64,000 nt of DNA from contig OZ024754.1 in assembly GCA_964016885.1 (NCBI GenBank), forward strand, positions 41,726,001 through 41,790,000. The letters are read 5' to 3'. This DNA comes from Eledone cirrhosa (taxonomy: Eukaryota). The notes beneath the pieces are model-generated. The model had not been told where the DNA came from and searched no databases. It was given only the letters and a program-made list of their open reading frames with translations. Below are positions 8,847 through 9,040 of this stretch, piece by piece. Positions within the stretch are counted from its first letter, which is position 1, and each line of letters opens with the position of its first letter. A program made the translations under genes and the position numbers.

Positions 8847-9039
8847 ATAGGAACGAGTAGGACCCCGACGGCTGAGCTCAAGCCGTTTCGACGGCTAATT
8901 CTGGACCAGAATTAGCCATCGAAATGGCTTGAGCTCAGCCGTCGGGGTCCTACTCGTTCCTATTACCCACTCTACTACCCTAAGTATTGAGTACTTTGGT
9001 GCGTTATGGTCCACCTGGTTCCTTACCACATTTCCTTCG

Positions 9040-9040
<1 letters not shown>
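8847..9040 (+). mobile_element. Hairpin-plus-tail element (family H), best-preserved copy
   Basis: 58-bp arms 8847-8904 / 8906-8963 with 2 mismatches, then ~75-nt tail TACCCACTCTACTACCCTAAGTATTGAGTACT...; flanked by (TA)n. Confidence 0.85.

Follow-up and report, generated by a model that had tools for sequence, protein, structure and literature searches.

Within a 64-kb stretch of DNA (hereafter the window), we find a small repeat of about 190 nt, a hairpin extended by a one-sided tail, inserted into TA microsatellites. A Penelope-like reverse transcriptase/endonuclease probably produced these hairpin-plus-tail insertions, using as its source the 3′ end of a pseudo-LTR of likely hammerhead ancestry. 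A Penelope-type origin is supported by the fact that both the layout and the target match the signature published for Penelope-like elements (PLEs), whose insertions are described as carrying an adjacent inverted and 5′-truncated copy, a tail of 30-40 bp that is often present at one end only, and a bias toward (TA)n (PMC8557442), with palindromes at the head-to-head junctions (PMC3846280). A previous interpretation made from the letters alone (the sequence-only reading) had supposed that this layout was undescribed, which the two sources just cited contradict. It had also called the element Penelope- or retrozyme-type. Layout and target support the first half of that label, but the second does not apply to an element with neither tandem units nor a complete ribozyme.

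Five copies of a hairpin with a one-sided tail

The anatomy of the element is seen directly in five copies, located at 8847, 19825, 22368, 22765 and 62661 as the sequence-only reading had noted. BLAST with the 8847 copy as query recovers the other four, with E values of 3e-53 (62661), 9e-35 (22765) and 3e-16 (22368 and 19825). No sixth copy rises above chance in the window, where the next-best match is a 15-mer with an E value of 0.034. A 15-mer at 36460 and a match at 16887 were rejected as chance similarities. The whole unit spans about 140-200 nt depending on the copy.

8847-8963, plus strand: palindrome of copy 1, with the tail-less (inverted) arm at 8847-8904 and the tail-side arm at 8906-8963
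8964-9040, plus strand: tail of copy 1, followed by (TA)n to about 9090
62661-62783, plus strand: palindrome of copy 2, centered on 62722 and preceded by a (TC)n tract
62784-62860, plus strand: tail of copy 2, with (TA)n beyond
22766-22942, minus strand: copy 3 (22765), with the palindrome at 22843-22942, the tail at 22766-22840 and (TA)n past the tail
19822-19972, minus strand: copy 4 (19825), with a decayed palindrome at about 19862-19972 and a tail remnant at 19822-19861
22362-22503, plus strand: copy 5 (22368), a single arm from about 18 nt before GAAA, with a variant tail at 22424-22503

The 8847 copy is the least decayed, and its two arm mismatches are both CpG transitions. The earlier description of a near-perfect hairpin suits this copy, in which 56 of 58 positions pair without gaps (8847-8963), but not the others, for which the figures are 51 of 61 (62661-62783), 42 of 52 (22765) and 36 of 54 (19825, whose tail-less arm carries a deletion of about 9 nt). 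The inverted, head-to-head copy is present in four of the five copies, and 22368 keeps one arm, as had been stated. Equally correct were the claims that the tail is one-sided and that element-wide terminal inverted repeats (TIRs) are lacking: no such repeats occur in the five copies, and a tail of about 77-80 nt is found on one side only in all four two-armed copies, that of 19825 ending after about 40 nt. Partial tandem (pLTR) forms are also absent from the five window copies. The tail-less end of the element is precise, and the arm holds a 20-nt palindrome about 18 nt from the element end. Small stem-loops are possible in the tail, whose folding relative to shuffles gives z scores of -0.25 (8847) and -2.24 (22368).

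The copies generally lie beside (TA)n or (TC)n tracts, as previously reported, and (TA)n flanks 22368 on both sides. The exception is the tail side of 19825, where no (TA)n adjoins the shortened tail. Target-site duplications are unreadable within these microsatellite flanks. At three of the five copies, the adjoining (TA)n tract also borders the end of a different common repeat, whose last part is (GAT)n (8780-8840, 20030-20110 and 62880-62955); this probably reflects co-nesting in microsatellites.

Abundance, ends and variants in sequencing runs

Reads or contigs of 4 of the 19 listed sequencing runs were mapped onto positions 8849-9042. No RNA run is listed among the holders. For organism A, the element is covered by 20,098 contigs in run X1 and by 24,697 raw RAD reads in run X17; runs X4 and X7 (organisms B and D) contribute just 3 and 4 contigs and are uninformative on spread to other species. 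Depth summed over the tail is about 3 million, compared with 7-22 for the single contigs listed, and such a depth is not a copy number. Together with the density of five copies per 64 kb, this read depth points to a very large family in one organism, which may amount to as many as 10^5 copies.

Both ends of the element usually adjoin (TA)n in the read population. The outer arm end joins (TA)n directly in 1,228 reads and in 90 + 23 contigs, and the tail end does so in 1,440 loose-end reads. Most loose ends past the center show low agreement (0.34-0.49) and are AT-rich, resembling host flank. One class, the loose end at 8897, runs on into a consistent 30-nt continuation, with an agreement of 0.78 over 1,284 reads (median 80 nt) and of 0.49 over 102 contigs from run X1, which indicates that a longer form of the element exists. 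This continuation is not found in the window.

The 15 joints listed out of 107 comprise 11 skips, from 8891-8907 to 8943-9002, and 4 strand switches that we put down to indels of the reference copy. The skips, whose short sides measure 21-46 nt, could be later deletions or artifacts; their spread is also as expected from variable truncation of a tailed cDNA. In the RAD run, read ends pile up at two positions, 8900 and 8910, that coincide with AATT sites, and these would be library cuts rather than element ends. Two further ideas were dropped. A parvovirus-like flip/flop of the hairpin was abandoned, as CpG decay accounts for the loop variants, starting from a subfamily state that reads CG and occurs in the read population (8880/8881). 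A coding tail was rejected as well: one frame is open, yet the 14 variant sites are split 4/5/5 over codon positions 1, 2 and 3.

A hammerhead-like 3′ half in the arm

The sequence-only reading likened the palindrome to a mirrored half-hammerhead ribozyme, and this likeness exceeds what shuffled sequences provide.

62739-62762, plus strand: hammerhead-like 3′ half, comprising C11.1, GAAA, helix III with a palindromic GAGCTC loop, and the GTC triplet

A C-GAAA followed by a helix of at least five pairs from A-U and by UH appears in 26, 25 and 23 of 5,000 dinucleotide shuffles for the three intact arms, corresponding to a chance of about 0.5% in a test that was designed after the motif was seen. 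The two arms also come together at the place expected for helix II and its loop. The proposed order GAAAC, helix, GTC is intact in three of nine arms (the tail-less arms of 8847 and 22765 and the tail-side arm of 62661), whereas four of the others read GAAAT, one AAAAT and one TAAAT. Similarly, five base pairs of the 6-bp stem III that had been proposed are conserved, but the sixth varies in the population, with A8937>T found in 610 of 1,824 and in 1,842 of 6,182 reads. None of the variants listed reaches 5% or more at GAAA, at G16.2-U16.1-C17 (the GTC triplet) or in the GAGCTC loop, and the positions flanking this loop vary freely in reads. Of the five CpG sites, four are listed with C>T as read on the hammerhead strand and one with G>A (where it equals the reference allele), a strand bias such as tolerance of G-U wobble pairs would give. 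Among the traits given for PLE hammerheads are a loop 3 that is palindromic and a helix II as long as 7-8 bp (PMC4209133).

Copies with CUGAnGA before the central stem, which had been envisaged, did not emerge. This core precedes none of the nine arms in the window and, judged by eye, occurs on neither strand of the 30-nt continuation of the longer form. The 5′ strand of helix I is likewise absent from the element copies. A type II (permuted) hammerhead with its core in the tail was rejected, as the tail contains no CUGAnGA. The Rfam hammerhead model, suggested earlier as a check, does not match the element. The same model fails to detect the 62381 motif and family B (both described below), which are better motifs than the arm; the best 150 of 163 Rfam matches are weak miRNA-hairpin and microsatellite matches. 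Furthermore, what would be the 3′ strands of helix II and helix III form a direct repeat, and as a result a rival hairpin across GAAA is favored in the predicted fold of the 8847 arm. Arm folding is no better than that of shuffles (z scores of -0.06 and 0.19). On balance, we lean toward a hammerhead ancestry for the arm, and we give no credence to a working ribozyme in the window copies. The expressions ‘converted ribozyme’ and ‘dsRNA hairpin’ used in the sequence-only reading would be apt only by inference.

Other hammerhead-like families in the window

A scan of the window for long non-microsatellite palindromes returned five, namely four element copies and 36919-37063. The last of these belongs to an unrelated family with the same layout (family B), which provides an internal control. 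A minimal-hammerhead family is also present.

36919-37148, plus strand: family B, with 72-bp arms and (TA)n on both sides
24058-24121, minus strand: single arm of family B, 98% identical, tail-less, cut inside helix II and lying in (TA)n
62377-62430, plus strand: minimal-hammerhead family (motif 62381) with the core CUGGUGA, its 3′ end sharing a 13-mer with the arm end of the element
38316-38366, minus strand: decayed copy of the minimal-hammerhead family, running into (TA)n

On one side of family B, a segment of about 85 nt precedes (TA)n and is taken to be the tail, as judged from one copy only. Family B carries a near-complete type I hammerhead scaffold at 36988-37043, with a 7-bp helix I (also present in the predicted fold), the core CAGAAGA, helix II, GAAA and a 4-bp helix III, and its center falls in the 5′ strand of helix I. 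The minimal-hammerhead family fits the metazoan PLE consensus in its U-rich lead and short helix I. It has a possible third place at 51460-51486, and (TA)n is entered at two of the three.

The sequence that the element was said to share with this minimal hammerhead is real, but the 13-mer alone has a BLAST E value of 0.26-0.43. We rejected the 62381 motif as the missing full form of the element, since its helices are different and its core is altered to CUGGUGA. TA-targeted stumps that bear hammerhead motifs, whether inverted or not, form a pattern in this genome.

Shared arm variants and variable centers

In each of the four two-armed copies, the outer-end state of that copy appears in both arms. 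It amounts to three changes in 8847, two in 22765 and an AT-rich end in 19825, while the arms of 62661 carry the common state. By pairwise alignment, the sister arm is strictly the nearest for five of the eight arms and is tied for one. The two arms of 62661 are not mutually nearest, with 8 differences between them versus 5-7 to others, and this exception could be due to decay or to the use of two templates. If the hairpin were copied as one linear unit, each change would be needed twice, and thus the mirror arm was likely rebuilt rather than inherited. The shared arm variants and the differing centers indicate that the rebuilding likely took place at insertion.

The centers of the four two-armed copies measure 31, 35, 16 and 34 nt, the 16-nt center of 22765 being short and asymmetric. 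The stretch of arm kept upstream of GAAA measures about 15-18 nt in three copies and about 18 nt in the copy with one arm, but for 22765 the figures are about 5 and 11 nt, so that the junctions cluster within about 18 nt of GAAA, in the helix II region. A direct-repeat scan of the centers yielded weak scores only, and we do not claim that they arose by loop duplication.

A probable Penelope-type mechanism and its alternatives

The anatomy, ends, target, variable centers, shared arm variants and abundance of the element are seen in the data, whereas the enzyme, an RNA step and a joining step, like the ribozyme ancestry, are what we infer. A PLE enzyme would nick both strands of a (TA)n tract, and cDNA synthesis would then start once at the tail end and once, about 80 nt inside the RNA, at the arm end. 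Both cDNAs would break off within the helix II region, which is self-complementary and lies upstream of GAAA; at this point, about 5-18 nt from GAAA, they would be joined head to head. The expected outcome is a tail-less mirror arm, a copy-specific center, and template variants in both arms. Everything upstream would be lost at joining, any CUGAnGA core included, and the use of a single cDNA would leave a one-armed copy such as 22368. A PLE protein studied in vitro is reported to cut and extend both target strands and to use two internal RNA start sites that delimit the tail, with ribozyme cleavage being dispensable (PMC11167929).

No PLE open reading frame is linked to the element. A 43-aa frame that runs through arm and tail matches none of 1.84 billion proteins and no Pfam family. 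Scans with element patterns gave no matches in metagenome contigs (0 and 0) or in genome contigs (0); in a viral contig collection, an 18-mer from the tail had three matches whose unrelated flanks mark them as chance, and two other patterns had none. Given that no reverse transcriptase/endonuclease partner was found, that the tail is twice the published length, and that the ribozyme is incomplete, we do not assign the element to a named PLE family.

The source of the RNA could be a long, ribozyme-bearing master or the hairpin itself. It is possible, though doubtful, that the copies of about 190 nt serve as their own template and constitute a self-propagating, ribozyme-free miniature parasite of Penelope enzymes. 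If so, cDNAs from the tail end and from the arm end would both copy one arm and would anneal through the relic helix II, and the hairpin would be rebuilt in every round, thereby supplying its own joining step. Self-propagation of this kind would explain why subfamilies stop at the same helix, why the longer form lacks CUGAnGA, and why the element is so abundant.

Three other explanations were weighed against insertion by two cDNAs. One of them, the main mechanism of the sequence-only reading, keeps the PLE origin and supposes that a single cDNA snapped back at helix II and copied itself, in line with the self-priming that has been proposed for PLE junction palindromes (PMC3846280). Junctions that cluster at helix II and variants common to both arms are what this process would leave behind. 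However, it does not explain why the mirror arm ends exactly at the arm end without a tail, as two in vitro start sites do, nor why the arms of 62661 differ as though they came from two templates. We consider a single snap-back very unlikely, and on our analysis two priming sites would give the better account of the one-sided tail. A fold-back MITE derived from a cut-and-paste transposon or another DNA transposon, in which the tail is captured flank, the arms are kept alike by hairpin repair or gene conversion (the quasi-palindrome correction of the sequence-only reading), and the hammerhead likeness is chance or a relic, is quite improbable. Long inverted arms, a very high copy number, TA on both sides and repeats nested within the arm are all in keeping with such a transposon, and palindrome instability could also produce center-anchored skips. 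Yet the tail is fixed in five copies and in the reads, which leaves one TIR about 80 nt from the end. The precise tail-less end, a hammerhead motif expected by chance at about 0.5%, and the recurrence of the layout together with a hammerhead scaffold in family B also speak against it.

The third explanation, a non-autonomous rolling-circle Helentron (a HINE, DINE-1-like) with terminal and subterminal asymmetric repeats and a mostly deleted middle, strikes us as unlikely. It would place one repeat at the terminus and the other subterminally, as observed, and it accommodates the 20-nt palindrome of the arm, the small stem-loops that the tail can form, and the longer middle that reads reveal in some copies. 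HINEs are also described as common in molluscs (PMC7492417). Nevertheless, the subterminal inverted repeats given for HINEs measure 12-15 bp, with 2-4 nt separating them from the 5′ terminus and 38-60 nt from the 3′ terminus, and the targets are TT or T-rich (PMC4067079), whereas the repeats of the element measure 50-60 bp, the inner palindrome lies about 18 nt from the end, the tail is about 80 nt long, and the target is (TA)n. In addition, the 8847 tail folds no better than shuffles (z score of -0.25), and both the whole-arm homogenization and the one-armed copy are left unexplained.

Further features of the window

Several additional features were recorded. The microsatellites and SINEs of the window suggest an octopod host. 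An apparently intact non-LTR retrotransposon at 40948-46269, which we take to be Tx1-like, has an open ORF1 (620 codons between stops, without a Pfam match) and an open ORF2 (1,152 codons, with endonuclease, reverse transcriptase and zf-RVT). It interrupts a 72-bp tandem array (39906-40876, and again from about 46507) built from MITE-like end sequence. A short open stretch on the minus strand at about 21300-21620 presumably represents the C-terminal end of an RTE-type LINE. Weak tRNA-model matches at 51822-51879 and 37447-37504 (minus strand), scoring 31 and 28 bits, are likely SINE heads. A decayed long inverted repeat at 16576-16751 (70% identity over about 175 nt) adjoins a short terminal sequence that ends in TTAA and has many other copies, and frames are open throughout a long tandem array of about 3.8 kb at 24992-28866.

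Significance and comparison with known systems

How PLE strands are synthesized and joined, and what purpose the hammerheads serve, are treated as open questions in the cited papers. Thousands of tiny insertions that can be read copy by copy are a data set on which priming from two templates and joining guided by a helix can be tested. Should the hairpin propagate without a ribozyme, then a hammerhead structure can matter after catalysis has been lost, and the genome would gain a large source of potential double-stranded RNA. Among PLEs, such a self-propagating hairpin would correspond to a MITE or SINE. If the copies are merely stumps of a long element, this is an ordinary annotation result.

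The closest parallel is with the complex insertions described for EN+ PLEs (Arkhipova et al., 2013, PMC3846280; Craig et al., 2021, PMC8557442; Frangieh et al., 2024, PMC11167929), with which the element shares a head-to-head inverted copy, a tail at one end, a palindrome at the junction, a (TA)n or AT-rich target, variable truncation, and one-armed copies. It differs from these published insertions in that its unit is about 140-200 nt, its tail is about 80 nt as opposed to 30-40 nt, its junctions lie near GAAA, no ORF or complete hammerhead was found, and it is apparently very abundant. Relative to the PLE hammerheads described by Cervera and de la Pena (2014, PMC4209133), the arm has in common C-GAAA, the 15.1/16.1 and 15.2/16.2 pairs, a palindromic loop 3, a helix II of 7-9 bp and an NUH triplet, but its helix III of 5-6 bp is long for the metazoan motif, and it lacks CUGAnGA as well as the 5′ strand of helix I. 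The PLE hammerheads in that account include opposite-strand pairs 100-700 bp apart.

The Naiad elements designated ‘HHR_half_core’ (Naiad_Ovul and Naiad_Obim; Craig et al., 2021, PMC8557442) likewise have a (TA)n target and no canonical hammerhead, and their 3′ ends are depicted as a hairpin ending in GTC and then GAAAC. Unlike the element, Naiads retain a nearby CUGAnGA, and by eye, the 3′ ends given there do not match its arm and tail. The 8847 copy is young, whereas cephalopod Naiads are called long inactive in the same source. With the non-LTR retrozymes of animals (bioRxiv 10.64898/2026.07.22.740005), the element shares being short, non-coding and PLE-related. As presented in that preprint, however, retrozymes are tandem units that each contain a complete type I hammerhead, whereas the element is a dispersed inverted unit without one.

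Asymmetric inverted repeats, an inner palindrome and the absence of element-wide TIRs are shared with Helentron HINE/DINE-1 elements as characterized by Thomas et al. (2014, PMC4067079), from which the element departs in repeat length, position, distance from the end, and target. It is also unlike the MITE of a DDE transposon, in that one of its repeats lies about 80 nt inside and is not terminal. Penelope expansions in octopus are mentioned without such detail in the part of PMC8967140 that bears on them. In the literature searched, we found no description of this repeat family, which Repbase or Dfam, outside that scope, may already catalogue. The insertion layout is already known from PLEs and is not new. 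What sets the element apart is its small size, its tail of about 80 nt, the placement of junctions at helix II across subfamilies, the absence of the core, which extends to the longer form, and its abundance.
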